This document shows, piece after piece, positions 4,609-29,700 of a DNA stretch of 39,051 bases; position 1 is the first letter of the stretch, and the number at the start of each line of letters is the position of its first letter. The stretch lies in the sequence record SRR20825010_6018; one strand, written 5' to 3'. The position numbers and the translations under genes are program-made. The notes below the pieces were generated by a model. That model made no database searches and was not told the DNA's origin. It saw only the letters and a list, made by a program, of their open reading frames with translations.

Positions 4609-6207
4609 TTAGTAAAAACGCACCTTGCTTCGAACGTTGTTTTTTTCGTCTGACAACTCAATCATGTATATTCCAACAGTCATATTCGCAATTGAAAAGT
4701 GATTTTTAAGTGTTTTCCTTTCTTCAAAAACCAATTCACCTAAAAGATTATAGATTTTCAGCGTTGGTTTTTCCATTGCGTGCTCAATTGTAAATGTTCC
4801 ATTCGAAGGGTTTGGATATACTAAAAATGCGTCTTCCGGTTTCTCTAAAATCCCTAAATCTCCCGCGTCGATTTGCAAAATATCTACCGAATGTTGAGTG
4901 TCCACTCTTTCGCACAAAAACGTGAATACTCCGTTGAGCATAACGGAAGCATGTTCTGTCGGAGAATGAAAATCACTTGAATCTACAAAGTAACTTTCAA
5001 TACCTCCTGTGGTTAAATCTAACTTATGGACGAATTGAGCATCGTAAAACGGAGAAAAGTCCGTTAGATATAAATTGCTTTGATTTTCTAAACTAAAGTG
5101 CAAATGCTTACCAGCTAGCGTAGCGAACAAGAGCCCGTTTGAATAACCAATTAAACTTTCCCCTGTAATAGGTAAATTTCTAATCGTCCACAAAATACCA
5201 TCGCTAGAGACATAGCTGCGCATTATCCATTCATTCGCGTTAACTTCCGAGTTAACATCTGCTGCGAAATTTATCCCATCAGAACTTCTTCGAATACCAT
5301 ACATCCCTGTTGCATACCAGCAAATGTCATTCTCAAATTCAAATACTTCAGAGAATTGAGAGTTTCCTAGTGCTAACATCTGATCTACAACTGTCGTTTG
5401 CTGAGTGGATTCGTTGTAATTCAAAACGAAAACATCCTTAGAGTTTCCTTGGTAATTTGTAATATCTTCAACAAGTACGTATTGTCCATTACTATTCAGT
5501 CCATTCACCCAGGCAAGTCCATCAGGTGTTGCAGAAGGATTCCCTGACACGATAGGAAACGTCACTGTTCGAACCGTTGAATAAGTAAAGTTTCCTCCAT
5601 TTTCTCTAGCGCATTTCAACTTCCATTGCACATCTGTAGGAGAAGTTTCCGCAGTCATTTGATAGAGGTAATCATTGTTCTTCTTCCCTATCGGTAAAAA
5701 GACATCGCTGGTTTCATTTGTGATCTTTTTAACCTCTGTTGGACTTATATATTCATACACTTGTCTTGCGTTGCCGTCAAATGCTGTTATAAACAATCCA
5801 TCATTGAATTGAAAAATTTCTGGATCAGAATCTCCCGCACCAGGGTTCAAGTCAAAAACTACGGGATTAAAACCATTGAAAAACATCAATTCATTGCCTT
5901 GTCCCACAAAAACTCCAGAAAGCACGGCTCCCCCAGAGACTTCGTTCAACGTTGATGTTACTTCCGTACATCCAGAAATCCATACAGGATTCGCAGATCC
6001 GATATCCGGGATAACTAATTGATACACGAAATTCGTTCCATTGTATTCTTTGTGCACTGCGATAATACTCGTTGGATCTCCTGGATAATTATAAATATGA
6101 TCAATCCATGGCTCGCTATCATTAAAATATGTTTGGATACTTGGATTTTGTGAGAACAGCGTATTTCCAAAAAACAAAAAAGCAAAAAAGGTAATTGTTG
6201 TTTTCAT
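4609..6207 (-). CDS. T9SS type A sorting domain protein with ELWxxDGT-like repeat remnant
   Basis: Signal peptide; C-terminal VYPNPSNGTFTI...IYNLLGELV...GIYMIEL; GNELMFFNG...DLNPGAGDSDP. Confidence 0.88.
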   Translation of the reverse strand: MKTTITFFAFLFFGNTLFSQNPSIQTYFNDSEPWIDHIYNYPGDPTSIIAVHKEYNGTNFVYQLVIPDIGSANPVWISGCTEVTSTLNEVSGGAVLSGVFVGQGNELMFFNGFNPVVFDLNPGAGDSDPEIFQFNDGLFITAFDGNARQVYEYISPTEVKKITNETSDVFLPIGKKNNDYLYQMTAETSPTDVQWKLKCARENGGNFTYSTVRTVTFPIVSGNPSATPDGLAWVNGLNSNGQYVLVEDITNYQGNSKDVFVLNYNESTQQTTVVDQMLALGNSQFSEVFEFENDICWYATGMYGIRRSSDGINFAADVNSEVNANEWIMRSYVSSDGILWTIRNLPITGESLIGYSNGLLFATLAGKHLHFSLENQSNLYLTDFSPFYDAQFVHKLDLTTGGIESYFVDSSDFHSPTEHASVMLNGVFTFLCERVDTQHSVDILQIDAGDLGILEKPEDAFLVYPNPSNGTFTIEHAMEKPTLKIYNLLGELVFEERKTLKNHFSIANMTVGIYMIELSDEKNNVRSKVRFY

Positions 6208-9296: not shown

Positions 9297-11951
9297 CTAG
9301 AATGGATAACCGATTCCAAAATGGAGTTGCGGTGCGAACGGCAATGGTAACAATGACGGATACGTCGCTCCGAATTCGGCAAATCCTTCGTCATAGTACG
9401 GTTGTCTCGACTGAAAAATCCACTGTGCTCCTGTCGGTAACGCAGGGTTTCTAATCGGAATTCCCAAATCCACCCTGACAATAAAGAAATCAAAATCGAA
9501 ACGCAATCCGAACCCGGCAGCAACAGCAATTTGTTTGTACCAATCATTAGAAATTTGTCCACCAGGGCGATTAATGTCGTTTTGCATTAACCAAATATTC
9601 CCAGCATCAGTGAACAAAGCACCTTTAACCAAAGAATTGAAGGCAAAGCGATACTCCAATGAACCGCCAATACGAATGTCTCCAATTTGAGTTGCAGTTC
9701 TGTTGGTGTCCAAATAATACTTATACGACCCTGGACCTAGAGCACGCGCCTTCCATCCACGATTATCATTCGCTCCTCCAGCAAAAAAGCTATAATCATA
9801 CGGCATCGAAGTAGTACTGTTCCCGTAAGGCAAACCGCCTCCAAAATTGAAGTGTAAATTGAAGCTTCGTCCCTTCCCGACTGGCTCAGAAACGATCAAT
9901 TCATTGTCCAAACGCGCGAACTGCGAATACCCAACACCAAAAATGGTATGTTGTCCATTGTCCAACGTATCTTGATAATCTTTAAAAAGGGAAAGTAAAT
10001 TACCTGCAGGATCAAAGGACGAGTTGAAGTAAAGTCCCGTATTTCGCTTCTTAAGATCGCGTTCTTTGTTATTGTACTCGAAGGTAAACTTCCAATCTTG
10101 CCAAATAAATTGGTTACTGTACGCATTCCTTAGGAACAAGTCATTCAAATTATCTATGGCCTGCGCGAAACTCTCACTTTTGTCAATGCTTACAAATTTC
10201 ATTACCGACATCCCAGGAAGTCCAGCTTGGAAAATTTGAGTTTTCAGTACATAAAACTGCCACAAATAATTCATTTGAAATGTTCCGCGCTTGAACACAT
10301 CTCTACTTTGATAATTGTAAGCTACTGAAATCAGTGTTTTCGGGCGATGTCTTTTGGAAAGATTCGTCACTTTTGAAGGAAACAAACCAGGGATTTCTAG
10401 TTTTAAACTAGGACCAATTTCAAAGGTGTTAAAGCTTCGACTTGCAGTTTTAATTGCCTGACCATCCACTGTTTCATCAAAGATCGGTGGTTGAGATTCA
10501 AATCCTCCAGAAAACGAAAGTGTTAACTTTTCTCCACCGTGAAATAAATTTCTGTGGGTATAATTGAGTGATGCCGCAACTCCTAAAAATCCATTCGAGT
10601 TTGTTGCTTTCGGTTCGAGACCAAAGCTCTGAACTTTCGCAGGAACCAGGTAATAATGAACATCTACGAGACCTGTTCCTGGGATTTCAATCAGCTCTGT
10701 TTTAATTGTCTGAAAAAGACCAAGTTGCAGTAATCTGTTGTAGCTTCGCTCTAAGTACTTTTCCTTGTAATGATTCGTCTCTTCCAAATAGTTCTGTACT
10801 TCGAGCACGCCCGGACGCAGGAACAAATCACCATTATACGTAAATGTAGCACGTCGTTTCCCATCAAGTTTACCCGTTTCCTTATCGATAATTTCATTGT
10901 AGACAAGTGTATCCATCGTATTGATAAAAAGCCCATTAAACGGCTCCAATTGCATACTCTTCATCGTTTGTACAAAATTCCCCTCAAACTGGGTCGTATC
11001 CGAAATGTGGAAATACACCTTTCTTACGTTGGTTGATCTATGCTGGATGGAAATTAAAGAATCACGGTTGTTTTCTGAGCGAATCAAACGGTCTTGAAAA
11101 ATAATTTTCAACTTAACCGATAAATCAGCCCTATTTGTATCCGCTTCGTATCTGATGTGATTTGCTGAAAAACCATAAAATGTATCGTCTCTCAAGTACC
11201 TTGCAATTTCAGAGCGTAAATCATCTAGCTCGTCGGTGTCGAACGGTTGCCCAACAAAAGGATCCGTTTCCTTCTTTCTCAAAAAATTTGCAAAACTTCC
11301 CGCAATACTCGCATTTTGACAGTCAATAGATAAACTATCAATAATGTAACGTCCTCCTGAAACAATCAAATAGTTCGCTTTCGCTTTTTGATTCTTCTTG
11401 TATTTGATCTCACCCGTAACGTTACTGTAATAATATCCCTTATTTTTCAGGTAAGCGGAAAGCTGTTCGATAGACTTTTCGTAAGGAATGCTATCAAAAA
11501 TCACTGGCGCAGTGCCAACATTGTACTTGAGCCATTCTCTCAGAAATTTCCTTGGGTTAACAGTATCCTTCAGCGGAATTATTTTCTCTGTGTAGAGTCG
11601 GTCACCTTTTTCAATGGCTTTTTCAATTCGCTTTGAATTAATCCGCTCTTGTTTTTGAAGTCGCTTTTGATTTTCTGTCTGTAATTTTACATTCTCACGG
11701 ATCCGCTTCTCAGCTACCTTTGTTGAGTCTATCGCATTGAATACAAGCAACTTCCATTTAATCCCAAAACTCTTGCGATTCGGTTGTTGACGAATGATTT
11801 CAGCTAAATCGTCAGAATCCAACTTTTCACCCTCTTGCTTGATTACATTCTTTTTCAATAGATACCTTCCCTCTGGAACATGCTTCGTCTGTCGACAAGC
11901 GGTGAACAAGGTGGCAAAAATCAACAGAATATATGTATGTTTGAGATTCAA
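9297..11951 (-). CDS. tamL: Lipidated Omp85/BamA-TamA family protein (TamL)
   Basis: TTG at 11951 gives lipobox LFTAC; POTRA-like region; FFAGGANDNRGW, FTDAGNIW, GLRFDFDFFIVRVDLG, terminal GIGYPF. Confidence 0.9.
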   Translation of the reverse strand: MNLKHTYILLIFATLFTACRQTKHVPEGRYLLKKNVIKQEGEKLDSDDLAEIIRQQPNRKSFGIKWKLLVFNAIDSTKVAEKRIRENVKLQTENQKRLQKQERINSKRIEKAIEKGDRLYTEKIIPLKDTVNPRKFLREWLKYNVGTAPVIFDSIPYEKSIEQLSAYLKNKGYYYSNVTGEIKYKKNQKAKANYLIVSGGRYIIDSLSIDCQNASIAGSFANFLRKKETDPFVGQPFDTDELDDLRSEIARYLRDDTFYGFSANHIRYEADTNRADLSVKLKIIFQDRLIRSENNRDSLISIQHRSTNVRKVYFHISDTTQFEGNFVQTMKSMQLEPFNGLFINTMDTLVYNEIIDKETGKLDGKRRATFTYNGDLFLRPGVLEVQNYLEETNHYKEKYLERSYNRLLQLGLFQTIKTELIEIPGTGLVDVHYYLVPAKVQSFGLEPKATNSNGFLGVAASLNYTHRNLFHGGEKLTLSFSGGFESQPPIFDETVDGQAIKTASRSFNTFEIGPSLKLEIPGLFPSKVTNLSKRHRPKTLISVAYNYQSRDVFKRGTFQMNYLWQFYVLKTQIFQAGLPGMSVMKFVSIDKSESFAQAIDNLNDLFLRNAYSNQFIWQDWKFTFEYNNKERDLKKRNTGLYFNSSFDPAGNLLSLFKDYQDTLDNGQHTIFGVGYSQFARLDNELIVSEPVGKGRSFNLHFNFGGGLPYGNSTTSMPYDYSFFAGGANDNRGWKARALGPGSYKYYLDTNRTATQIGDIRIGGSLEYRFAFNSLVKGALFTDAGNIWLMQNDINRPGGQISNDWYKQIAVAAGFGLRFDFDFFIVRVDLGIPIRNPALPTGAQWIFQSRQPYYDEGFAEFGATYPSLLPLPFAPQLHFGIGYPF

Positions 11952-11972
11952 GTATTTTAATCTTAGATGCAA

Positions 11973-11980
11973 CAAAAATA
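11973..11980 (-). promoter_or_regulatory. Sigma70 -7 element for tamL
   Basis: TATTTTTG on minus strand, ~22 nt upstream of the proposed TTG. Confidence 0.55.
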
Positions 11981-11992
11981 ATAAAAGCAGGC

Positions 11993-12709
11993 ATGGAAAC
12001 CCTTTCAAAAATCAAGATAAAATGGATTCGTTCTTTGCGACAGAAAAAATCGCGCCAAAAAGAAGGTTTTTTTGTTGTGGAAGGGGAAAAAATGGTGCTT
12101 GAACTAATTGAATTATTTCCTGAGAAAATAAAATTTGTTTGTACGCTTAACGATTCATTTCCTGGCATTCAGTGTTATTTAACTGATGAGCGAGGTATGA
12201 AGGAAATCAGTACATTGCAAACTCCGAACAAATTGGTTGCTGTTGTGGAAATTTCTACGATTATTCCCACCAAAGAAGATGTGATTCTTGCACTCGACGG
12301 GGTTCAAGATCCTGGCAACATGGGAACTATTATTCGAACTGCGGACTGGTTTGGAATCCAACGTATTGTTTGCTCTAAAGAAACCGTCGACTGTTACAAT
12401 TCCAAAGTGATTCAAGCGAGCATGGGTTCTATCTTCAGAGTCGCGATTGAATATCTTGATTTGCCGAACTTTTTTCAATCGTCTACTCTACCCATCGTTG
12501 GTGCGGTGTTAGATGGTGAGAATATGTATTCTTCGAAGCTTCCTGAAAAGTGTATTCTACTCATGGGAAATGAAGGAAATGGTATTAGCCCCGAATTAAT
12601 CTCAACACTTACGCACAAGGTCCTGATTCCAAAACACGGGAACGCTGAATCCCTCAATGTTTCCATTGCCACTGGAATTATTCTTGCTGAGTTGAAGCGG
12701 AGCAAATAA
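11993..12709 (+). CDS. TrmH/SpoU family RNA methyltransferase
   Basis: FVVEGEK, LDGVQDPGNMGTIIRTADWFG, MGNEGNG, ESLNVSIATGI. Confidence 0.95.
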   Translation: METLSKIKIKWIRSLRQKKSRQKEGFFVVEGEKMVLELIELFPEKIKFVCTLNDSFPGIQCYLTDERGMKEISTLQTPNKLVAVVEISTIIPTKEDVILALDGVQDPGNMGTIIRTADWFGIQRIVCSKETVDCYNSKVIQASMGSIFRVAIEYLDLPNFFQSSTLPIVGAVLDGENMYSSKLPEKCILLMGNEGNGISPELISTLTHKVLIPKHGNAESLNVSIATGIILAELKRSK

Positions 12710-12765
12710 GTGCAACAACTTTCTTTTAAATTCAAAATCCCTTCAGTTAAACTGTGAGAAAGCAC

Positions 12766-12773
12766 TATTTTTG
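12766..12773 (+). promoter_or_regulatory. Sigma70 -7 element for the amidohydrolase
   Basis: TATTTTTG, 10 nt upstream of ATG. Confidence 0.5.
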
Positions 12774-12783
12774 AAAGAAAAAC

Positions 12784-14433
12784 ATGAAATTTTTCCTCTC
12801 AACTGCGCTTCTGCTTCTTTTATCGTTAAGTTCTTGCTTCAAAGGGATTTCCGTTGATCTTATTATTCACAATGCTAAGATTCACGTAATGGACGATAAG
12901 AACACTGTTTTTGAAGCCATTGCGATCAAAGATGGGAAAATTGTGGAAGTTGGAGCTGAGCGACAAATCTTAAACCGATACAGCGCAAAAGAGGTGATTG
13001 ATGCAGAAATGAAAGATGTTTATCCCGGTTTCACGGATGCTCACGCGCATATTCTTTCCTATGCGAAGCAGAAACTTGGTGTGAGTGTTGTCGGTTCGCG
13101 TTCTTACGCCGAAATGATCGTGAAAATTGAAAAATATCAAGGTAAAAACAAACGGAAATTTATTGTTGGGGGCGGCTGGGACCAGTCGATTTGGGGAGAT
13201 TCTGAGTTACCAAACAATGATCGATTGAGTGAAAAATTTCCTGACATTCCAGTCTGCTTATTCAGAATAGACGGTCATGCTTTACTTGCCAATGACTTTC
13301 TCTTAAAGCAAGCTGGATTATTGGATGACGGTGACAAAAAAGCGGACTATTCCTGCCAAGGAGGTTATTTTGTAATGGATTCTTCTGGGTTTACAGGTGT
13401 AGCCGTGGACAATGCCATGAACGACATTATCGCCTTAATTCCAAACTACGAAGAGAAGGAAATGCGCAAGGCTATTTTGGAAATTCAGTCGGAATTAATG
13501 AGCTACGGAATTACTGGTGTTCACGAAGCTGGCTTATTAAAAAATGAATTGGATTTGATGATTAAAATGGTTGAAGCTGATGAGTTAGATTTGAACATCT
13601 ACGGAATGCTACTTCCTACTGATGAAAACATTGCCTTTGCGCGAAAAAATGGAATCTATGAAAATCAGAATCTGCTTGTTCGGAGCTTTAAGGTGTATGG
13701 AGATGGCGCACTTGGAAGTCGTGGAGCCTTTCTGAAGCAAGCATACAGCGATCACCACGATCATAAAGGGTATTTAATTACCGAAATGGATGAAATTAAG
13801 CGCGTTGCTGGCATTTGTGAGGAACTTAACTATCAAATGAATACTCACGCCATTGGTGACTCGACAAATCGCCTACTTTTAGATGTTTATCAAGACATTT
13901 ACACACGAAAGCCCGATCATCGCTGGAGAATTGAACACGCGCAAGTCGTTGACCCAGCTGATTTCATTCTATTTGCAAAATCAGGAGCATTTCCAAGCGT
14001 ACAACCGACACATGCAGTAAGCGATCAGCGTTGGGCCGAGAATAGATTAGGAAAAGAACGAATGGAAGGTGCGTACGCCTATAATTCACTTCTGAAACAG
14101 TTTGGCGCGATTGCCATTGGCACCGACTTCCCTGTTGAATACCCAGATCCTTTCAGAACAATTCATGCGGCTGTGAATAGAAAGGATACCGAAAATGCTC
14201 CTTCTGGTGGCTTTTTAGCGAATGAAAGTATTACGTTGGAAGAATGTATCCGAGGAATGACGGCTTGGGCAGCACTTTCCGCGTTTCAGGAAGATCATTT
14301 GGGGACACTCGAAAAAGGGAAAGAAGCTACATTGGTGATCTTTGAGAAACCAATTGAAGCTTGGCCAGATTATCATCCAAACTATGCAAACACAACCATT
14401 ATAAAAGGAAAAAAGGTTCATTCCGTAGAATAA
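12784..14433 (+). CDS. Metal-dependent amidohydrolase (YtcJ-like, Amidohydro_3), lipoprotein
   Basis: Lipobox LSSC; PGFTDAHAH, KVYGDGALGSRGA, HAIGD, RIEHAQ, GTDFPVE. Confidence 0.93.
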   Translation: MKFFLSTALLLLLSLSSCFKGISVDLIIHNAKIHVMDDKNTVFEAIAIKDGKIVEVGAERQILNRYSAKEVIDAEMKDVYPGFTDAHAHILSYAKQKLGVSVVGSRSYAEMIVKIEKYQGKNKRKFIVGGGWDQSIWGDSELPNNDRLSEKFPDIPVCLFRIDGHALLANDFLLKQAGLLDDGDKKADYSCQGGYFVMDSSGFTGVAVDNAMNDIIALIPNYEEKEMRKAILEIQSELMSYGITGVHEAGLLKNELDLMIKMVEADELDLNIYGMLLPTDENIAFARKNGIYENQNLLVRSFKVYGDGALGSRGAFLKQAYSDHHDHKGYLITEMDEIKRVAGICEELNYQMNTHAIGDSTNRLLLDVYQDIYTRKPDHRWRIEHAQVVDPADFILFAKSGAFPSVQPTHAVSDQRWAENRLGKERMEGAYAYNSLLKQFGAIAIGTDFPVEYPDPFRTIHAAVNRKDTENAPSGGFLANESITLEECIRGMTAWAALSAFQEDHLGTLEKGKEATLVIFEKPIEAWPDYHPNYANTTIIKGKKVHSVE

Positions 14434-14496
14434 ACCTTTTCATGATCAGCGCCTGTCTGTATAACCAGAAAAAAGCAGCCCAGGCGAAGTTTTATA

Positions 14497-15456
14497 CTAA
14501 AATGAAGGACATGAAATTGTTCTAAATTTCAACGGTCTATCCTTACATGCTAAGTTAAATCCTAACGAGATTTCATGCGCTCCACCAGAAACACCGTTGT
14601 TCAGTTTTGACACGGTAACGTCATAACTATATCCAACTTTGAATTTTGGTGTGTTTAATCCAACTGTAAGAATAAATGCATCTCTATTTCTAAACCAAGC
14701 TCCAGCCGTGAATACGCCGTATTTTACATAGGTTCCAAGATTCAATTGTTGGAAACCATTTTGATAAGAGTAAATGATCGAAGGCATGATTACTGTTGAA
14801 TTCGAATATTTCGATTTTCCTCCTAAAGGAATGTACGCAGACATGTGTCCAGTAAATCGCATTGGTAATTTTGACTCACCAACGATAAGCGACTCATTCG
14901 GGCGATTTAAGTGGTTCGCTGCTACTCCAATATTAAAGTGCTCATTGAACACTACGGCACCCGCAGAAGCATCAAAAAAGCCTACAGATCCACCACGTGG
15001 AACGTCACCTGTTTGATAAATAAACCCTCTTCGTGGATCAATCATATCTCCAAAAGTCAATTTATCCCAATCCAAAAATTTCTGAACATAATTCGCTTTA
15101 GCACCGAAAAGTCCTGTCCATTTACGTCCTAGTCTCAAGTGATAAGAATAAATCAATCCCAATTGAGATGTATTTAATGTTTTCGCTTGTACATCGTGTA
15201 CGGCAAGCACTCCGATTCCTCCGGAAATATTCGTGAAATAATTGTCATATGCAGCGGCGTAAGACACATAAGACCCTGGCAACGTTGGCCATTGATTCCT
15301 GTAATTCATTGCAAATCTCGGACACTGATTTGTTCCGGCCAAGGCTGGATTCAAATAGATCGGATTTGAATAAAACTGTGTAAATTCTAAATCTTGCGCA
15401 AATGCCGAGACACTTCCAAAAAGACTTAAACCAACACATACTAACCATTTTTTCAT
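14497..15456 (-). CDS. T9SS membrane protein, PorP/SprF family
   Basis: Signal peptide then QDLEFTQFYSNPIYLNPALAG, NYRNQW, GYSYD, GAHEISLGF. Confidence 0.93.
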   Translation of the reverse strand: MKKWLVCVGLSLFGSVSAFAQDLEFTQFYSNPIYLNPALAGTNQCPRFAMNYRNQWPTLPGSYVSYAAAYDNYFTNISGGIGVLAVHDVQAKTLNTSQLGLIYSYHLRLGRKWTGLFGAKANYVQKFLDWDKLTFGDMIDPRRGFIYQTGDVPRGGSVGFFDASAGAVVFNEHFNIGVAANHLNRPNESLIVGESKLPMRFTGHMSAYIPLGGKSKYSNSTVIMPSIIYSYQNGFQQLNLGTYVKYGVFTAGAWFRNRDAFILTVGLNTPKFKVGYSYDVTVSKLNNGVSGGAHEISLGFNLACKDRPLKFRTISCPSF

Positions 15457-15470
15457 ATTAGTTCTTTTAA

Positions 15471-17270
15471 TTATCGCTGACCGAAGCGATTTTGTTTGGT
15501 CACAAATCGAAGAGAAACTTGATGCGATAAAGCTCTTTCTCCAGTCATTGCACTAGTGGTGTAATCTATATTGTAGTTTATGCTGAAAGTTTTTGATTTT
15601 ACTCCAATTGAAGCAGCGGGATCTAATTTGTCATTCACTGCCACTCCTGCTGTTATCCAATTCCATCGAACATTTGCGCCTCCCCAAAGTTCTGATAATT
15701 GATCATTTTTTTGATACACCATGTAAGGTGATAATCCCAATGTTTTTCGTTGATTCAACCAATCTGTTCCCGCGCTGGCAACAAATCCGCTGGCTACTCT
15801 TTGAGGATTCTTGATGTCGTAAGAGAAGATGTTGTTCGTATATCTGAAGATATTGTCAACTCGTGCACCAACAAAGAACCATTTTGTATTCACCAAAGCA
15901 CCAGCACCAAGATCCTTATACCATAAATTTCTTCCTATTGGCGCATTACCGTTTTCGTAATAACTCACTGCATTTCCTCTTTCCAATTCTACCATGTCAA
16001 CGTTATTCATTTGACTCGCCACTAAATGCTTATCTCCCATTTTGAAACGCACAGAAGGTTCAAAGGATACACTATTGGTTATTGAAATCTTCGGAGAATA
16101 GGTCATTGCGACCTGTCCGACGTGCACGCCACCATCCTTGTAGACTGAATGATCAAGTTGGATTCCCCATCCGCCTCTCATTCCATAAGAATATCCATCA
16201 ACAGAGATTTGATTTATGAATTGCTCATTTTCTTTTCCTAGCCATTGAGCTCTCGACAACGTTTGAACACGTGTTGCCAACAATGTTCCCGCAGAACTAA
16301 AATTAATATCATTGGCTGTCATCCCTGGCACATGATAGTGGGGATCGCGCGAATTTTTCAGTGCAACTGGGTTATCCATCATTCGTTGAATGCTTCTAGC
16401 AAAACGATTTAGCTTGGTTTTAAAGCTAGTTCGCTTAAGAGACGTAGAAGTTCCCGATTTCGTTGCAGAGAAATTCGAATGAGCATTATTTTTTGAATCA
16501 AAAAGGTATGGTTCCATCGTTCTTGGCTCTTGAACAAAGATTCCTTCGTTTCCTTTCAGGTCAAGTTCAAACCCATTCGACGCATCATTATCCCAAATTT
16601 TGGAAGAGATTGCTTTTTCTTGCTGACTATTTAGCAACTGATCAAATTTTGACATCATTTTTGAACTTGTCAGAAGATTTTCACTTCTAGCACTGCTATT
16701 TTCAATCAAACCCGTATTATTCGCAAATTGAACACTAGGAGTTTGGTGATTTTCTTCAATAGTTTCTGAACTCCATTCAGATGGCAAATAAGGTGCGCTA
16801 GACCCCCATCCTAAACTTGATTCAGCGGCTTCCAACTTACCGTAATGACCGCTATTTAAAGCTGATCCATTGGAAGAATAACCTTCATTGAGTTCAACAA
16901 TTCGTTGAATAATATCTTGCTCTTGTTGTTTCTTAGAATGCGCTTGAAATTCATTATTTGAATTAAAGAAGGAGAACATGCTTCCTGTTGTCATATAAGA
17001 ATAGGCAAAGAAACCAACGAAAATTGTCGCCAGAACAGCAGAGCTAGTGTAGATTCCTGCACCTCTTCTTTTCTTTTCTAGCATTTCAGTATTCGGGTAA
17101 AAGACTGGTGAAGCATCCACTTTCGCTACCTCCCACATGTCGCGTTCAATATCAAGCTCTGGGTGCTGCATAATAAACAGCTCCAATTGCTCAATCTGAT
17201 CTTCCGAAAGGTTTCCTTCCGCTAGCTCAAAAAGCCACAAGTCGATATTTGAAAACGAAGGTGTACTCAT
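15471..17270 (-). CDS. Putative anti-sigma factor fused to a C-terminal PorP/SprF-like beta-barrel
   Basis: N-terminal LWLFELAEGNLS...LELFIMQHPEL, KKRR then TM (aa ~72-93), polar linker, aa 308-599 colinear with the adjacent PorP; 4-bp overlap with the sigma gene. Confidence 0.8.
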   Translation of the reverse strand: MSTPSFSNIDLWLFELAEGNLSEDQIEQLELFIMQHPELDIERDMWEVAKVDASPVFYPNTEMLEKKRRGAGIYTSSAVLATIFVGFFAYSYMTTGSMFSFFNSNNEFQAHSKKQQEQDIIQRIVELNEGYSSNGSALNSGHYGKLEAAESSLGWGSSAPYLPSEWSSETIEENHQTPSVQFANNTGLIENSSARSENLLTSSKMMSKFDQLLNSQQEKAISSKIWDNDASNGFELDLKGNEGIFVQEPRTMEPYLFDSKNNAHSNFSATKSGTSTSLKRTSFKTKLNRFARSIQRMMDNPVALKNSRDPHYHVPGMTANDINFSSAGTLLATRVQTLSRAQWLGKENEQFINQISVDGYSYGMRGGWGIQLDHSVYKDGGVHVGQVAMTYSPKISITNSVSFEPSVRFKMGDKHLVASQMNNVDMVELERGNAVSYYENGNAPIGRNLWYKDLGAGALVNTKWFFVGARVDNIFRYTNNIFSYDIKNPQRVASGFVASAGTDWLNQRKTLGLSPYMVYQKNDQLSELWGGANVRWNWITAGVAVNDKLDPAASIGVKSKTFSINYNIDYTTSAMTGERALSHQVSLRFVTKQNRFGQR

Positions 17271-17767
17271 ACAAGCTCTATCATTCCTTTTAACTGCTTC
17301 TTAATTTTCTTTCTAGCTCGAAACAAATAAACTTTTACTTGCGAATCATTCAAATCCAAAATGGTTCCTATCTCTTTGTAAGAATATCCCTCAAGGTCTC
17401 TTAACAAAATGATAGTCTTTTGGATCGGAGGAAGAATACTCACGGCTCTGTCTACCACTTGGTTCGACTCAAAGGCATTCGCAGGAGCATTTCCTTTATC
17501 GAATGAACTTATCGAATCCGTTAGTTGAACTCTTCCTTTTCGCACAGAAAAATTAATCATCGCATTGTGCGCTGTGGTAAACATCCACGATTTAGCCTTT
17601 TCAGGATCCACGCTTGATTTGTTAATCCACAATCGCTCAAAAACATCTTGCACTATATCCTTTGCATCTTCCTCATTTCTCAGAAAACGGATAGCATAAC
17701 CGAATAAATTTCCGGAATGTTTCTTTACGACGATATTATAATCTTTCCTGTTCAAATTTTGTCTCAA
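17267..17767 (-). CDS. ECF RNA polymerase sigma factor (TTG start at 17767 or 17755)
   Basis: DAKDIVQDVFERLW, KSWMFTTAHN, LRDLEGYSYKEIG, VKVYLFRARKK. Confidence 0.95.
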   Translation of the reverse strand: MRQNLNRKDYNIVVKKHSGNLFGYAIRFLRNEEDAKDIVQDVFERLWINKSSVDPEKAKSWMFTTAHNAMINFSVRKGRVQLTDSISSFDKGNAPANAFESNQVVDRAVSILPPIQKTIILLRDLEGYSYKEIGTILDLNDSQVKVYLFRARKKIKKQLKGMIELV

Positions 17768-17778
17768 TCAGCAGTTAA

Positions 17779-17805
17779 AACAACTTCGTGCTTGATTTTG
17801 TTACA
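17779..17805 (-). promoter_or_regulatory. Candidate autoregulated ECF promoter
   Basis: Minus strand TGTAAC-N15-GTTGTT directly upstream of the sigma start; no TAnnTTTG nearby on that strand. Confidence 0.55.
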
Positions 17806-17962
17806 TTATGAAACTCGAAGAACCGCTTTTAATTACATATCACAAAATCGATTTACCATTCCCTATCTCAGGTCGAATAAAACATGTGTTCTATCGAATA
17901 TTTTTTAACGATAATTTCATACATTCGTAATACACGTTTACACAATTAACCAAGCGAAAACA

Positions 17963-19726
17963 ATGATAGAAGAAAAACGACTTTTTGACGTTCCATATTT
18001 CCAATTGAAAACCTATCCTAACGAACGGATGTTTGTTACCAAAAAGAACAATGTTTGGGAAGGTGTATCTACTTCACAGTTTCTAGATGAAGTAATGCTT
18101 GTTTCTCGAGGTTTAGTGGCTTATGGAGTGCAACCTGGAGATAAAGTTGGGTTAGTTTCGGGCACTCGATACGAGTGGAATGTGATGGATATTGCTATCC
18201 AACAAACAGGGGCGATTGTCGTTCCTTTTTACCCAAATATTTCCGAAAATGACTATCGCTATATCTTTAATGATGCCGGAATAAAATTATGTGTTATTGC
18301 TGATGACGAGCTCTTCTCAAAAATCTCTAACATAAAGGACTCAATTCCAACACTTGAGCATATTTTCACGATGGATGACGTTCCAGGTGCGCATGAGTGG
18401 GTAGAATTGCATCAAGCGGCTGAGAAGACACCTGAATCTGAGATTACTGAGCGAATGAGCAAGGTTAACTATGAAGATTTGGCAACGATCATTTATACTT
18501 CAGGAACAACTGGAAATCCCAAAGGAGTAATGCTTTCGCACAGAAATCTTCTTTCTAATGTTGAAGCATGTTGCGATCCAATTCCTGCGGATCAATACTC
18601 CAATGTTCTTTCCTTCCTTCCAGTGTGTCATGTCTACGAAAGAATGTTACACTACTTGTACATGCACTTAGGTTGTTCGATTCACTATGCGGAATCTATG
18701 GACACTATTGGAGATAACATCAGAGAGGTGAAACCTCAAGTATTTACTGCTGTTCCACGTCTCATTGAAAAAGTCTACGATAAAATCATGGCTAAAGGCG
18801 ATGAACTGACGGGAATTAAACGAAAATTATTCTTTTGGGCTGTTTCAGTCGGGGAAGAATACGAAGTGGTTGGAAGATCATTTGGATATAACATTAAGCT
18901 TGCCATTGCACGAAAATTAATCTTTAAAAAATGGCAAGAAGCCTTGGGAGGAAATGTTCGCGCGATTGCCTCTGGAAGTGCTGCTCTTCAACCGAGATTA
19001 GCGCGTATGTTTTTAGCGGCAGACATTCCAATTCTTGAGGGGTATGGACTTACGGAAACTTCACCGGTAGTTTCTGTGAACTGTTTCAAAAAAGGGATTC
19101 GCGTTGGTTCTGTTGGAGCTTTATTGGAAGGCGTAGAGGTTAAAATCGCCGAAGATGGAGAAATTCTTGTCAAAGGTCCAAACGTAATGATGGGGTACTA
19201 TCAACTTCCTGATAAAACAGCAGAAGTAATGAAAGATGGTTGGTTCCATACGGGCGATATCGGAGAGTTTATCGAAGATAAATTCCTTAAAATCACTGAC
19301 CGTAAGAAGGAAATTTTCAAAACTTCTGGCGGTAAATATGTTGTTCCTCAGGCGATGGAAAACAAATTCAAAGAATCGCGATTTATTGAACAAATCATGG
19401 TAATTGGTGAAGGACAAAAATTCCCTTCAGCGCTAATCGTACCAAATTTCGCATTTGTAAAGGAGTGGGCAAAGCGTAAAAATATAGACTTAGGAGACGG
19501 TTCTGGTGCTGCGATCACTTCAAATCCTAAAGTAATTGATCGAATTGAAAAAGAAGTCGCTGCATTCAACAAGGGATACGGCAACTGGGAACAGATCAAA
19601 TGTCCGCAATTGCTAGAAAAAGAAATGTCCATTGAAGGTGGGGAATTAACGCCTACGTTAAAACTCAAACGCAAGGTTATTATGGAAATGTACGCTGATA
19701 AAGTGAACAAAATATACCCTGCGTAG
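17963..19726 (+). CDS. Long-chain fatty acid-CoA ligase (AMP-forming)
   Basis: IIYTSGTTGNPKGV, EGYGLTETSP, WFHTGDIG, ITDRKK, LTPTLKLKR. Confidence 0.95.
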   Translation: MIEEKRLFDVPYFQLKTYPNERMFVTKKNNVWEGVSTSQFLDEVMLVSRGLVAYGVQPGDKVGLVSGTRYEWNVMDIAIQQTGAIVVPFYPNISENDYRYIFNDAGIKLCVIADDELFSKISNIKDSIPTLEHIFTMDDVPGAHEWVELHQAAEKTPESEITERMSKVNYEDLATIIYTSGTTGNPKGVMLSHRNLLSNVEACCDPIPADQYSNVLSFLPVCHVYERMLHYLYMHLGCSIHYAESMDTIGDNIREVKPQVFTAVPRLIEKVYDKIMAKGDELTGIKRKLFFWAVSVGEEYEVVGRSFGYNIKLAIARKLIFKKWQEALGGNVRAIASGSAALQPRLARMFLAADIPILEGYGLTETSPVVSVNCFKKGIRVGSVGALLEGVEVKIAEDGEILVKGPNVMMGYYQLPDKTAEVMKDGWFHTGDIGEFIEDKFLKITDRKKEIFKTSGGKYVVPQAMENKFKESRFIEQIMVIGEGQKFPSALIVPNFAFVKEWAKRKNIDLGDGSGAAITSNPKVIDRIEKEVAAFNKGYGNWEQIKCPQLLEKEMSIEGGELTPTLKLKRKVIMEMYADKVNKIYPA

Positions 19727-19747
19727 TTAAAGCAATAGTTACTTAAA

Positions 19748-20083
19748 CTATTCTACTGGCTTTACTAGGGTGAATTTCACGATGACATGATGGAATTCGG
19801 GATAATACATTCCAGACTGAAATTTTAGCGTTTTAGCGTGGTTATGTAATTGGATTTTTGCCGAAGTTCTTTTGATGTCTGTTTCGATCAATTTGGTCGA
19901 AGTAACGTTCCCTTCACGGTCAACTGAGAGTTCATATTTTGCCCAGCCATCGATTGTTCCTTCAAGAACGTAGGTTGGTTGAGAAGTCAATTTTCTGCCC
20001 TCATCGAGCAATGTTCCACTGATCAATTGTCCAAAAGAACTGTTTGCTAAGGCAAAAAATAAAAGAAAGCAAAAGGTTTTCAT
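19748..20083 (-). CDS. Small exported protein with TonB C-terminal-like fold
   Basis: ATG at 20083 gives signal peptide MKTFCFLLFFALANSSFG; G-WAKYELSVDREGNVTSTK resembles the TonB_C beta-hairpin. Confidence 0.65.
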   Translation of the reverse strand: MKTFCFLLFFALANSSFGQLISGTLLDEGRKLTSQPTYVLEGTIDGWAKYELSVDREGNVTSTKLIETDIKRTSAKIQLHNHAKTLKFQSGMYYPEFHHVIVKFTLVKPVE

Positions 20084-20182: not shown

Positions 20183-22276
20183 TCAAGCAATTCTCCCCCA
20201 ATTTGGTCTCGACTTTAGCATTTCAGAGAGTTTCGAACGTATTCCTTTGTTCTCTGGCAGTTCCAAAGTTGAATCTTCAGAAAGAATTTTCTTGGCTACA
20301 GAGCGCGTTAATCCAACTAAAGGTTGATCTTTCGCGATATCGGCAATTTTGAGATCGAGCAACCCACTTTGCTGAGTTCCGAGAAGATCACCAGGACCGC
20401 GCAACTGCAAATCAACTTCAGCAATTTCAAATCCATCATTCGTTCGCACCATTGTTTGAATGCGCTTTTTACTGTCCTCCGACAGTTTGTTTCCGGTCAT
20501 TAGAATACAAAACGATTGCTCTGCCCCACGCCCAACTCGACCTCGGAGTTGATGCAATTGCGAGAGACCGAATCGCTCAGCACTTTCGATAATCATCACT
20601 GAAGCATTGGGAACATTTACCCCAACTTCAATCACCGTTGTTGCCACCATAATTTGCGTTTCACCCCGCACAAAGCGATTCATTTCAAATTCTTTATCCG
20701 CTGGCTTCATTTTCCCATGTACCATACTGACTTGGTAATTCGGCAAAGGAAAAGACCTCGATATTGCTTCAAAGCCTTCCATGAGGTTATTGTAATCGAG
20801 GGATTCCGATTCTTGAATTAGAGGATAAACGATGTAGATCTGTCTCCCTTTCTTTATTTCTTCCTTCATGAATCCGAAGACGCGTAATCTATTCTCTTCA
20901 AAACGATGCGAAGTTGTAATGGGTTTTCTTCCTGGTGGAAGTTCGTCAATCACAGAAACATCAAGATCACCGTAAAATGTCATCGCGAGCGTTCTAGGAA
21001 TGGGAGTTGCCGTCATAATTAACACATGCGGAGGAAGTGTATTTTTCTTCCACATTCTCGCCCGTTGCGCCACGCCAAATCGATGTTGTTCATCTATAAC
21101 AACGACGCCCAAATTCTTAAACTTTACAACATTTTCCAGCAAGGCATGCGTTCCAATTAAAATATCAATCGAACCATCTTCTAATCCTTCGTGAATTGGA
21201 ATCCGGTCTTTTTTCTTCGTCGAACCTGTTAGCAATGCCACGGTGATATTCATTTCTTTCAACAACTCAGAAAGCGAGGCATAGTGTTGGATTGCTAAGA
21301 TTTCTGTTGGTGCCATTAACGCCGTTTGAAACCCATTTCCTACGCCGAGAAGCATTGTGAGTAATGCGACGAGTGTTTTTCCTGACCCAACATCACCTTG
21401 CAAAAGCCGATTCATGTGGTGACCCGAATTTAAATCTTTACGAATCTCCTTGAGTACCCGTTTTTGTGCATTCGTGAGTGTAAATGGAAGATGGTTTGCA
21501 TAAAAATCATTGAAAGCTTCCCCTACTTCGTCCAACACAAATCCTTTTGATTTTTGCATGGTGATTTGCTTTCGAATCAACAATTCCATTTGCAGAAAAA
21601 ACAACTCTTCAAACTTTAATCGAAATCGCGATTTCAGTGCCTCTTGCTCACTTTTTGGCACATGAATCATCTGAACTGCTGTATTTTTATCCATCAAGCG
21701 ATGTTCTTTCAGAATGGATTCTGGCAACACTTCTTCGATGGGCTGCTTCAATTCTTGCAATAACGATTTCACTAGCTTTTCGATTCCTTTGGTGTTCAAT
21801 CCACGAGCCGTTAATTTCTCGGTGCTTGAATACACAGGTTGGAATCCTGTCGTGTTTTCTTTCGTCAATTCAGAAATTTCAGGATGTGGAATATTCCATT
21901 TCCCTCCGTATAATTTCGCACGACCGTAGATGATCACTTCTTTTTGAATTGGTAAGGAAGACATTACCCATTTCGCTCCTTGGAACCAAACAAGGTCAAT
22001 CATTCCTGTTTCATCTTGAAATTTTGCCGTGAGTCGCTTTGCCCTTCCTGTCCCAGACTCCATCATCCCGATAATCGTTCCTTTGATCTGTGCATAGCCA
22101 TCGAGCGCTGCCAACTGCGATACTTTATGAAATACGGAGCGATCGACGTAGCGAAAAGGATAATATTCAAGTAAATCTCGAAAGCTGAAAATACCAATTT
22201 CCTTCTTCAGCAATTCAGCACGTTGCGGGCCTACACCTTTGAGGTATTCAATCGGCGTGAGAAGGAAATTATTCAT
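20183..22276 (-). CDS. recG: ATP-dependent DNA helicase RecG
   Basis: LKGVGP, RLKFEELF, QGDVGSGKT, DEQHRFGV, MTATPIPRTL, QLHQLRGRVGRG, RGPGD. Confidence 0.98.
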   Translation of the reverse strand: MNNFLLTPIEYLKGVGPQRAELLKKEIGIFSFRDLLEYYPFRYVDRSVFHKVSQLAALDGYAQIKGTIIGMMESGTGRAKRLTAKFQDETGMIDLVWFQGAKWVMSSLPIQKEVIIYGRAKLYGGKWNIPHPEISELTKENTTGFQPVYSSTEKLTARGLNTKGIEKLVKSLLQELKQPIEEVLPESILKEHRLMDKNTAVQMIHVPKSEQEALKSRFRLKFEELFFLQMELLIRKQITMQKSKGFVLDEVGEAFNDFYANHLPFTLTNAQKRVLKEIRKDLNSGHHMNRLLQGDVGSGKTLVALLTMLLGVGNGFQTALMAPTEILAIQHYASLSELLKEMNITVALLTGSTKKKDRIPIHEGLEDGSIDILIGTHALLENVVKFKNLGVVVIDEQHRFGVAQRARMWKKNTLPPHVLIMTATPIPRTLAMTFYGDLDVSVIDELPPGRKPITTSHRFEENRLRVFGFMKEEIKKGRQIYIVYPLIQESESLDYNNLMEGFEAISRSFPLPNYQVSMVHGKMKPADKEFEMNRFVRGETQIMVATTVIEVGVNVPNASVMIIESAERFGLSQLHQLRGRVGRGAEQSFCILMTGNKLSEDSKKRIQTMVRTNDGFEIAEVDLQLRGPGDLLGTQQSGLLDLKIADIAKDQPLVGLTRSVAKKILSEDSTLELPENKGIRSKLSEMLKSRPNWGRIA

Positions 22277-26772: not shown

Positions 26773-29700
26773 ATGGCAAAATTACTGAAAATAACAGGAC
26801 GTACTCTCGGCATTCTACTCGAATGGCTCTTGATCTGCCTGATTTTGGTAGCTTTTGCTATTAGAACAGCCCCTTTTCAAACGTTTATTGCGCAAAAAGC
26901 AACGGACTATCTTTCCAAGGAATTAAAAACAACGGTTAAGGTTGATGCGATCTCCATTGTTTTCTTTGACGAAATCGCAATCGAAGGAGTACTTATTCAA
27001 GATTTAAAGCACGACACGCTCATTGCTGCCGAAACTATTTTCGCGACAATTAAGAGTTTCAATTTGAGTAAAAATCACTTTACTATTTCAAAAGTACTTG
27101 TCGATGAGGCCAATATTCACATCGCCATGGATAAAAAAGGTGATTTGAACCTTCAGTTCTTGAAAGATTATTTCAGAACGGAGAAATCATCTACCAAACC
27201 GAAACCCGTTAGATTCGACATTACTGAGGTGGAATTGGCTAACAGTAAGTTTCTGTACGACGACGATCGCAAGGCTCCCATTCCAAAAGGAGTTGATTAT
27301 GCTCACATTGGCGCGCATTCGATAAATGGTAAGTTTTCGAAAATTAAGGTCATTGATGATGACATCAGTGCCCAAATTGACCATTTTTCCGCCATTGGGT
27401 ATTCTGGATTCAATTTGGTGAATTTAACGGCGAATGCACATGTTTCTGGTTCAGGAGTGAAATTGAAAAATCTCAAAATCCTCTCCGATAAGTCAGAAAT
27501 TATCGCTCCAAAGTTCAACCTAATTTCAAATCACTACGATGATTTCAACTATTTTATAGATAGCGTAGCCTTTGATGCAACGATTTCGAAAAGTAAAGTC
27601 TCCATGGAAGACGTTGCTCTTTTTGCAAACGCGCTCGACGGAATGAATGACATGATTACTTTAAAGGCGAACCTCTCCAATAAAGTAAACGACTTACGAA
27701 TAAGCAATTTAGACCTTCGATTTGGGGAAAAATCTTTGATTCAAGGAACTTTCAAGCTGGTAGACTTCTCCGACCTGGATAAAGCCCGTTTCACAGAGCG
27801 TATTTCCTATGCCTACATTGATGTCGATGAGCTAGAAGCCTTGCGAATGCCCAACAGCATGAGTTCACCACATTTATCCCTCGACGAAAGAGTAAATCGA
27901 CTGGAGTATTTTAAAATAAACAAACTTTCTTTTGATGGCTCCCTGAAAAACTTTGTCATTGATGCCAATCGCTTTCAAACACAACTTGGCACTGTTTACA
28001 TGACAAATGGGTTGAAATTCGATTACATTGAATCCGAGAAAGCACTTGCTTTTACGAGACCAGAAACGGGGGATTATGACTTCAAAGTAGATCAATTCGA
28101 TCTCGGCGCATTCATGGATAACAGCCAATTAGGAAAAGTAGATGGAACGTTTTTCATTTCAGGACTTGCAAAGAGTACTTCGGACATAAAATTCACTGAA
28201 ATTGAAGGAAACCTGAAGCAGTTTGATTTCATGGGATACGCCTACAATGACGTTAAAATCACCGAAGGAAGTTTCGTCGATCAAGTGTTCCAAGCGCAGG
28301 TCAATATTAAAGATGATGCTCTTGAGCTTTCTTACAATGGTTATATCGACTTGAAAGGTGATCAACGAATGAAATTCACGGTTGACATAGCAAAATCTAA
28401 CTTGGATAAAATTGGCTTCACTTCGGAAATGGCCTCTTTGCGTTCTAATATTGAAGTGGATATTACTGGCCGAGATCCGAACCATTATACTGGGCATGTA
28501 ATCATGACAGGACTCATTTATGCTGAAAATGACCGCAGTATTGAAATAGAACGAGCAGACCTTAAAATCGAACGTGGACTGATCGAAGACAAATTTACAA
28601 TTACAAGTAATGTAGCCAATGCTGAGGTAATCGGGAAACTCAATTTCGATTACTTATGGAACGACGTTCAAACGCAGTTGAGTCGAATTTTCCCTGCACT
28701 TTTCCGCCAAGATGAAAAGTTTATAAAGAAGGGAAGTACAGATCATTTCACGTATAGTATTGAAGTACTTGATGCCACAAATATTCTGGCCATCTTTGCT
28801 CCTGATCTGGCCATCGCAGAGAATACAATTGCAAAAGGACACTATTTCGGGGAGACTTCGGATTTTTTACTTGATCTCACTTCAAAAAGCGTTACTTATC
28901 AAGATATGGTGTTTTCGGGAGTCAATATCCACCAGCAAATGGATTCATCGAACCTCTTGGCAAACTATAAAGTTGAAAATTTCGCGTATAATGATTCCAT
29001 CGATTTTACGGATTTGGAATTCGAAACATACGGAGGAAATAACGAACTCGAATCAAAAATTAATTGGGATGGAAACACTCCAAACGCCTCGGAAATAAAA
29101 TGGAGAACAAGTGTGCGAGATTTCGATCACTTTGATTTCAAATTAGAACCGTCCTACTTTAGCATTCAAGATCAGCGATGGGAAATTGCAAACGCATCAA
29201 GTATTCAATTCGAATCAGATACTGTGCGGGTTTCCAACTTTAAACTTCAGCGTGGACTTCAATCCATCTTAATGAATGGTCAGGTTTCTGAAAATGATGC
29301 GGATCAATTACGCTTCGAAGTAAACGATGTTGAAATTAAAGAGATCGCGAGCCTGTTTACCGATGATTTTACAATGGCAGGTAAACTGAACGCTTGGGGA
29401 TATGTTTCTAATCCTACCAAAAAATTGAAATACGTTGCAGATGCTCACCTTATTGACTTTAGTGCTAACGGACAAGCAATTGGAGATATTTTTGTGCAAT
29501 CTGAATGGAATGAGAAAACAGAGAGCATCGAATTGAGTGGAGATTTAATGTATCGAGGAGTTCAAACGTTTGATTTCCTTGGGAGCTATGCCACCACAAA
29601 AAAAGAAGACAATATCAATTTCTCTCTTGTCTTTGATCAAACAGACATTCAATTCACCAATGCGTTTATGGATCCGGATGTAGTCTCTGAAATTAGAGGG

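Follow-up and report, generated by a model that had tools for sequence, protein, structure and literature searches.

Can an anti-sigma factor end in an outer-membrane barrel of the PorP/SprF family, and what could such a barrel report to the cytoplasm? The question is raised by a three-gene operon in the sequence record SRR20825010_6018, of which a stretch of 39,051 nucleotides was analyzed (the window). The ORF list of the window contains three co-oriented open reading frames (ORFs) on the minus strand, a sigma factor, a 599-aa protein (15471-17270) and a 319-aa PorP (14497-15456). The stop codon of the sigma gene overlaps the start of the 599-aa gene by 4 nt (ATGA), and a 14-nt gap separates the latter from the PorP gene, as had been claimed in the original prediction made from the sequence of this locus. 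The position 17805, treated there as an ORF end, was wrong; no ORF starts there, and it is the first base of a promoter-like motif. Using computational approaches, we established the architecture of the operon, its conservation and synteny, the upstream motif with its genomic distribution, and a predicted interface between the sigma factor and the N-terminal domain of the 599-aa protein. We read the locus, with a probability of roughly 0.7, as a self-regulated, envelope-spanning sigma/anti-sigma switch, in which a Dma-like anti-sigma factor carries a PorP/SprF-type barrel.

The first gene of the operon (17267..17755, minus strand) encodes an extracytoplasmic function (ECF) sigma factor, as assigned by Pfam and NCBIfam profiles and by the alignment of relatives. 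The protein matches Sigma70_r2 (3.2e-13) and Sigma70_r4_2 (7.9e-17) in Pfam, and exceeds the cut-off of TIGR02937 (92.3 bits, cut-off 42.9). It consists of regions 2 and 4 only and, with 162-166 aa, falls into the size range of ECF sigma factors (about 160-200 aa). Its best NCBIfam match is NF058625 (GFO_1088/PG0214-type ECF sigma) at 125.3 bits, under the cut-off of 130; judged by sequence, this is its nearest named family and not one to which it belongs. The listed ORF runs from TTG 17767 to 17267 (166 aa), but relatives align from its residue 5, and TTG 17755 is therefore the likely start of a 162-aa protein. Among the upstream regions listed, TTG rather than ATG is the start codon of the sigma gene in nearly all relatives. 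Together with its closeness to the upstream motif described below, this codon suggests a short leader and a weak translation start.

The anti-sigma N-domain of the 599-aa protein (aa 1-68; 17067..17270, minus strand) is predicted to be cytoplasmic. In the AlphaFold2 model of the whole protein, which was built from 126 aligned relatives and has a mean predicted local distance difference test (pLDDT) of 79.3, the domain forms three helices at residues 9-49 (pLDDT 95-98), in agreement with the previously claimed helical domain of about 65 aa. Five positions of the domain, F14, E18, G19, L21 and W46, are invariant in the alignment of relatives. Binding of the sigma factor by this domain, for which a complex model had been proposed as a check, is predicted by such a model; the sigma factor with aa 1-68 scored 0.69, versus 0.00 for the best of three controls. 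The mark set for this score is attained by 51 of 78 solved complexes and by 2 of 108 mismatched pairs. The contacts agree between runs to at least 91%, the partner pLDDT is at least 87, and the predicted contacts involve sigma residues 7-47 and 101-163, thus both region 2 and region 4. The anti-sigma role of the N-domain is supported by the translational coupling of the two genes, by the complex model, and by the split relatives described below. The domain has no match in PDB sequences. We attribute to chance a match to the BRK domain that 16 of 41 members gave (best E 0.0013).

The N-domain is followed by the KKRR sequence and a single transmembrane helix (aa 71-94; 16989..17060, minus strand), identified by hydropathy and by the model. 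The hydrophobic window at aa 71-93 is the only strongly hydrophobic one in the 599-aa protein, and a hydrophobic window within the first 130 aa is present in 120 of 126 relatives. The acidic, helical N-terminus lacks a signal peptide, which distinguishes the protein from the Sec-exported PorP/SprF proteins. The predicted periplasmic tether (aa 95-300; 16371..16988, minus strand), delimited by pLDDT and composition, contains a helix at 103-134, a low-confidence stretch at 137-276 (pLDDT <50 over 137-208, 215-241 and 252-276) and a second helix at 283-299. The linker has a high content of Ser, Asn and Glu, varies from 133 to 333 aa in length (median 182, 126 relatives), and is poorly conserved in sequence. 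The lack of a signal peptide, the KKRR sequence with one transmembrane helix, and the long Ser/Asn/Glu-rich linker had all been read from the sequence beforehand; hydropathy, composition and the model agree with them, about 200 aa of the linker being modeled at low confidence.

The remaining part of the protein (aa 301-599; 15474..16370, minus strand) comprises a conserved N-tail (DNPxALxNxRDP...) and a 14-strand PorP/SprF-type outer-membrane barrel, assigned by PF11751 and by the model. The PorP_SprF profile (PF11751) matches aa 325-589 (E 3e-14, 53.6 bits, cut-off 22.3), and BLASTP aligns the fused barrel colinearly with the companion PorP (272 aa aligned, 22% identity, E 9e-14). The AlphaFold2 model has 14 long strands at aa 330-590 (pLDDT 97-98). 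The barrel is not of the eight-strand OMP_b-brl_2 type, as no match to the Pfam family PF13568 was found. In a VIA-align search against 48,161 chains, the top structural match was PorV of the type IX translocon (6h3i_F, Z 22.2, root-mean-square deviation 3.1, 249 residues aligned), followed by FadL (Z 20.7) and by FadL-like BamG-type chains of three Bacteroidota barrel-assembly machinery (BAM) complexes (Z 18.5-19.6). Foldseek returned the same class (OmpG, PorV and FadL), and no solved PorP/SprF chain is among the matches listed by the two programs. SprF is described as a 14-strand outer-membrane protein, and BamG as a FadL-family protein, likewise of 14 strands, with an N-tail that passes through the barrel (PMC12611786).

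The third gene of the operon (14497..15456, minus strand) encodes a canonical PorP/SprF protein of 319 aa with a signal peptide, which matches PF11751 (E 2e-55) and TIGR03519 (218.5 bits, above the cut-off of 90.55). The Pfam, BLASTP and structural results thus uphold the suggested PorP/SprF nature of the C-terminal domain and its colinearity with the adjacent PorP, and the AlphaFold2 model agrees with the suggested plan of an inner-membrane anchor, a tether and an outer-membrane barrel. A different kind of PorP fusion, with an N-terminal PorP-like domain and an extra C-terminal part, occurs in other Bacteroidota (locus L118, 3478-5364, 628 aa; locus L119, 3533-5254, 573 aa).

A word-indexed search found 477 relatives of the 599-aa protein at E<=1e-3, and the best 120 of the 477, which were listed, are all 552-678 aa long. 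In an exhaustive search of representative sequences, 439 clusters reached E<=1e-3, 120 of which also reached E<=1e-30; the length is mostly 526-731 aa, and many were matched from residue 1 to the end. The full-length form in hundreds of relatives means that the fusion is not an artefact. A scan of species genomes with a pattern built from 7 closer rows detected relatives in 152 genomes, from which 80 loci were kept, labeled mostly as Crocinitomicaceae, Fluviicola or Flavobacteriales. Several records of metagenome-assembled genomes (MAGs) carry implausible labels such as Henriciella, Akkermansia and Chitinophaga pinensis (L001, L030, L047, L050, L062 and L065), and these are probably mislabeled bins. 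Public databases name proteins of the 599-aa type "PorP/SprF family membrane protein" or hypothetical, and the member from Crocinitomix catalasitica is annotated solely as PorP/SprF.

A related Fluviicola genome served as the centre of three genome samples, of the family, the order and the phylum. Among the family genomes, 109 of 201 have the full-length form (rows at E<=6.3e-61, counted by hand), as do 69 of the 301 genomes of the order. In the phylum sample this form was found in the centre genome alone (1/401); since only three candidates were scored per genome, this count is weak evidence for a restriction within the phylum.

The gene order is strictly conserved. A sigma gene with the 4-nt overlap lies upstream in 74/74 loci having at least 300 nt of upstream sequence, and a canonical PorP gene lies directly downstream, at a gap of -34 to +17 nt, in 64/64 loci having at least 300 nt of downstream sequence. 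The synteny survey called for in the original prediction therefore finds the fusion and the three-gene order conserved, and not two separate genes joined by an assembly error. Identity among the loci is 57-81% for the sigma factor, 57-84% for the companion PorP and 34-64% for the anti-sigma factor. In a complete Fluviicola MAG (G001), the companion PorP is broken into pieces of 92 aa and 121 aa (L071, 6879-7402), and a second copy of the motif described below (L120, 967-996) precedes an 80-aa N-terminal fragment of a PorP; these fragments could be due to gene decay or to assembly frameshifts.

Upstream of the sigma gene, motif scanning and conservation delimit a predicted ECF-type promoter (17776..17805, minus strand), formed by TGTAAC at 17805-17800, a 16-nt spacer, and TTGTTTTA at 17783-17776. 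The motif TGTAAC-N16-TTGTTT(T/A)A was found with invariant spacing in 73/73 upstream regions (72 related loci and the window), usually 27-31 nt before the TTG start and about 20 nt before it in the window. The copy at 17776-17805 is the only match in the window, and across 0.95 Mb of loci the motif occurs once per sigma locus. We infer that it is the promoter of the operon and is used by this sigma factor. The 201 genomes of the family contain 276 matches versus about 75 for a reversed control (summed by hand). By hand count, about 247 of the matches fall into the 109 genomes with the fusion (2.3 per genome), and about 29 into the 92 genomes without it, which at 0.3 per genome is what chance would give. 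In two genomes, relaxing the motif to GTAAC-N14-19-TGTTTWA gave no enrichment over the control. A site with a 15-nt spacer before a PorP gene in genome G002 was discarded, given the constant spacing elsewhere.

We further analyzed the genes behind additional copies of the motif, using 40 extra sites picked by eye from 150 listed rows, with preference for genomes with multiple matches, plus two found earlier. The resulting set held 45 motif occurrences, 44 of them with a downstream ORF. The largest recurrent class is a family of lipoproteins of ~125 aa, usually encoded in tandem (16/44 sites). It is followed by PorP/SprF paralogues (6/44), one of which is a second PorP right behind the operon in genome G495, by an unnamed family of ~280-aa proteins that begin with a hydrophobic stretch resembling a signal peptide (4/44), and by OMP_b-brl_2 or OMP_b-brl barrels (3/44). 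In the ~125-aa lipoproteins, the lipobox Cys is followed by basic residues (K/R), and the model is a transthyretin-like beta-sandwich (pLDDT 87). They recur behind the motif in many Crocinitomicaceae genomes (for example L122, 8660-9428), and belong to no Pfam or NCBIfam family; neither the window nor the 80 loci contain them. The distribution of the motif points to a candidate outer-membrane regulon with positive autoregulation.

The closest counterparts in plan are the regulators of the Dma family, for which we compared Dma1/Das1 and Dma2/Das2 of Bacteroides thetaiotaomicron and Reo/EcfO of B. fragilis. To our knowledge, no proteins other than Dma-type regulators have been proposed to connect, as a single polypeptide, the cytoplasm of a Gram-negative cell with its exterior. 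Dma1 starts with a sigma-binding region, continues with a membrane helix and a long disordered stretch, and ends in an OMP_b-brl_2 barrel of eight strands; it is partnered with an ECF21 sigma factor and was detected by experiment at full length in membranes and with its C-terminus in vesicles (PMC10927553). The protein described here is similar to the Dma family in its predicted sigma-binding N-terminal domain, one membrane helix, disordered tether and C-terminal barrel, as well as in being encoded directly after an ECF sigma gene, and its three-gene operon resembles that of Dma2 (PMC13088901). It differs from Dma1 in that the barrel is of the 14-strand PorP/SprF type, and from the Dma family in that the third gene is a paralogue of the fused barrel and the N-domain has no detectable sequence family. 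The Dma plan is already known, and the PorP/SprF-type 14-strand barrel and the promoter motif with its candidate regulon are new. The article texts on the Dma systems (PMC10927553 and PMC13088901, without their supplements) do not mention PorP, SprF or the T9SS (type IX secretion system) in the parts cited. The literature searches found no published description of a PorP-type anti-sigma factor in article texts, their supplements, which might list such architectures, being excluded; this agrees with the original prediction, which knew of none. In the parts available, literature naming both SprF and an anti-sigma factor is unrelated to the fusion.

The same sigma/N-domain pair occurs with other barrels. 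In all 7 genomes of the phylum sample that had a match to the N-domain only, the matching gene adjoins a sigma gene whose product is 39-47% identical to the sigma factor here. These split anti-sigma proteins (L111-L117) are 280-380 aa long, several have the N-domain twice in tandem, and a separate protein with a signal peptide and an OMP_b-brl_2 domain comes next in 4/4 loci checked. Examples from other Bacteroidota are L114 (2051-4577) and L113 (1674-4032). The split relatives thus share with the operon here a homologous N-domain, a related sigma factor and a three-gene order ending in an outer-membrane barrel, whereas their barrel is encoded on its own and belongs to a different family. From these relatives it can be concluded that the sigma/N-domain core is older than the PorP fusion and is recurrently tied to an outer-membrane barrel. 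The split loci look like Dma-type systems taken apart into separate genes; the literature yielded no account of such an arrangement, although no search was aimed at it. In addition, the Fluviicola genome G001 encodes a Dma1-like pair (L169, 2038-3767), in which a sigma gene overlaps by 4 nt a gene whose 413-aa product has a single hydrophobic helix and, at its C-terminus, an OMP_b-brl_2 barrel. Since this pair coexists with the PorP-type system and its sigma factor shares just 23% identity with the one described here, the PorP-type system is additional and not a replacement.

The logic of a barrel acting on an ECF sigma factor is shared with the FecA-FecR-FecI and SusC-like systems, which let a signal at an outer-membrane barrel govern the sigma factor by way of an anti-sigma factor of the inner membrane. 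There, barrel and anti-sigma factor are distinct proteins in contact in the periplasm, the barrel being a TonB-dependent transporter of 22 strands, whereas in the operon described here the two are parts of a single chain.

In the switch that we propose, the cytoplasmic N-domain would hold the ECF sigma factor between its regions 2 and 4, the single helix would anchor the anti-sigma factor in the inner membrane, and the flexible tether of ~200 residues would cross the periplasm to the 14-strand PorP/SprF (FadL/PorV-like) barrel in the outer membrane. We propose that, when the barrel or its N-tail is disturbed by some event at the outer membrane, the tether or the membrane helix would become accessible to regulated proteolysis, in the way proposed for Dma1 (PMC10927553). 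The freed sigma factor would then transcribe from TGTAAC-N16-TTGTTT(T/A)A promoters, including that of its own operon with the companion PorP. Its other predicted targets would be the tandem genes of small lipoproteins, genes of small outer-membrane barrels, and some PorP/SprF paralogues. The location in both membranes, the proteolytic release and the nature of the signal are inferred in this reading.

Several observations weigh against this switch. The N-domain belongs to no anti-sigma family that could be recognized by sequence with Pfam profiles, and its weak single matches to zf-HC2, DUF4880 and DUF3379 were each seen in one of 41 members. Because sigma/anti-sigma complexes have already been solved, the complex model may owe part of its score to resemblance to these structures, and it is no proof of binding. 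The fused barrel scored 62.1 bits with TIGR03519, under the cut-off of 90.55. As to the motif, about 0.3-0.4 chance matches are expected per genome, 15/44 sites precede unrelated genes, and the class fractions of downstream genes are biased because the sites were picked by eye, favouring genomes with multiple matches. Finally, many ECF promoters have a CGT-type -10 element, which TTGTTTTA does not resemble.

Within the proposed switch, two candidates for the signal, the state of type IX secretion and the general state of the outer membrane and barrel assembly, appear about equally likely. The first is a tentative possibility, according to which the barrel docks with the translocon, with the companion PorP or with cargo bearing a C-terminal domain (CTD) of type B, and the sigma factor is freed when this contact is lost or overloaded. 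It is suggested by the family of the barrel, as the studied members of PF11751 are shuttles for type B CTD cargo (PMC12618676, PMC9143113). Every operon includes a canonical PorP, whose conservation exceeds that of the anti-sigma factor; PorP paralogues lie behind the motif at 6/44 of the sites, including the second PorP in G495; and two related genomes have 18 and 20 PorP/SprF matches, respectively, together with CHU_C and Por_Secre_tail cargo.

The genomic context argues in the other direction. PorP/SprF shuttles are usually encoded just downstream of their type B CTD cargo (PMC12618676), whereas the gene upstream of the 599-aa gene is that of the sigma factor, and no type B CTD cargo gene is adjacent to the operon in the window or in the related loci. 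The flanks are housekeeping genes, and the recurrent targets of the motif are mostly small lipoproteins and generic barrels, not T9SS parts. The protein is similar to PorP/SprF proteins in its PF11751 match, colinear motifs and 14-strand barrel, and the organism's relatives have many paralogues as well as T9SS cargo; it is dissimilar in having no signal peptide, in the tethering of the barrel to an inner-membrane anti-sigma module, in its TIGR03519 score under the cut-off, and in its position, which is not behind a type B CTD gene. Of the original proposal of a T9SS-coupled signalling system, the envelope-spanning anti-sigma factor with a PorP barrel has held up, whereas the reporting of secretion or cargo state is not supported, given the absence of adjacent cargo and the small share of PorP genes among the motif sites. 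The T9SS link is plausible, while the predicted regulon looks like one of general outer-membrane proteins.

It is to a similar degree doubtful, yet possible, that the protein senses the general condition of the outer membrane, so that failed insertion of the barrel or membrane damage destabilizes it and frees the sigma factor, comparable to sigma-E/RseA and to Dma1. The predicted targets fit such a role, being OMP_b-brl_2/OMP_b-brl barrels and lipoproteins with basic residues behind the lipobox Cys. The type of barrel looks interchangeable, since the split relatives pair the same sigma/N-domain module with an OMP_b-brl_2 protein, and the fused barrel is nearly as close in structure to the BamG-type chains as to PorV (Z 18.5-19.6 versus 22.2). 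The published model of Dma likewise proposes the sensing of outer-membrane perturbation (PMC10927553). However, general sensing leaves the PorP type of the barrel and the strictly kept companion PorP unexplained, and one related genome already has the Dma1-like OMP_b-brl_2 pair; because the two systems coexist in this genome, they probably sense different things.

The linker raises a further alternative, that the protein is a precursor which is routinely cut once exported, leaving an ordinary PorP in the outer membrane and a short anti-sigma stub in the inner one, with nothing spanning both at steady state. The linker is indeed long, poorly conserved and modeled at low confidence, and C-terminal fragments of Dma1 were found in vesicles, but full-length Dma1 was also detected in membranes (PMC10927553). 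The preservation of the fusion in hundreds of species, beside a separate PorP, argues for a working covalent link, and we consider routine cleavage unlikely. It is highly improbable that the protein is a normal PorP/SprF shuttle that happens to have an unusual extension at its N-terminus, as its database names would have it, and that its adjacency to the sigma gene has no regulatory meaning, given the 4-nt overlap in 74/74 loci, the missing signal peptide, the complex model that passed with its controls at zero, and the N-domain found beside the same sigma family in 7/7 distant genomes without a PorP domain.

Returning to the envelope-spanning switch, one may speculate, with still more reserve than for either signal, that the tethered barrel, alone or with the companion PorP, engages the translocon or type B CTD cargo, and that its occupancy is relayed mechanically or proteolytically to the sigma factor. 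An N-tail that threads the barrel and is continuous with the tether is proposed as part of this relay. Bacteroidota would then plug different barrels, with 8 or 14 strands, fused or separate, onto one sigma/N-domain core.

The surroundings of the operon in the window are the same conserved housekeeping neighborhood as in the related loci. A divergent AMP-dependent ligase gene is present in the flank of 69 loci, a helicase gene like the window ORF at 20183-22276 in 46 loci, and a convergent amidohydrolase gene in 39 loci; a tRNA-synthetase-like gene is also among the flanks. The helicase ORF is one that we take, from its motifs and not from a profile scan, to be recG-like. Behind the PorP gene, a terminator-like hairpin (14410..14441, minus strand), found by a consensus scan alone, overlaps the 3' end of the convergent amidohydrolase gene. 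The sigma-70 consensus scan gave nothing above shuffled sequence, and Rfam has no match within positions 12000-20000. Elsewhere in the window, a 532-aa protein (4609-6207, minus strand) carries a T9SS sorting domain of type A (Por_Secre_tail, E 7.9e-12), from which it follows that the organism uses type IX secretion. In addition, a 903-aa protein of the Omp85 superfamily (9297-12008, minus strand) and a 1528-aa TamB/AsmA-like protein (26773-31359, plus strand), encoded 15 kb apart, are probably an outer-membrane assembly pair similar to the translocation and assembly module (TAM).

The system is common in the Crocinitomicaceae, abundant bacteria of freshwater and marine habitats, and is relevant to work on the T9SS and on the envelopes of Bacteroidota. 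The conserved promoter motif provides a ready reporter and a candidate regulon, and the occurrence of both split and fused relatives suggests that the barrel is an exchangeable sensor module. As the barrel comes from a family with a known job, that of a type IX cargo shuttle, a concrete and testable guess can be made at the signal. If this guess were true, the operon would be the first direct transcriptional read-out of the state of type IX secretion across both membranes.

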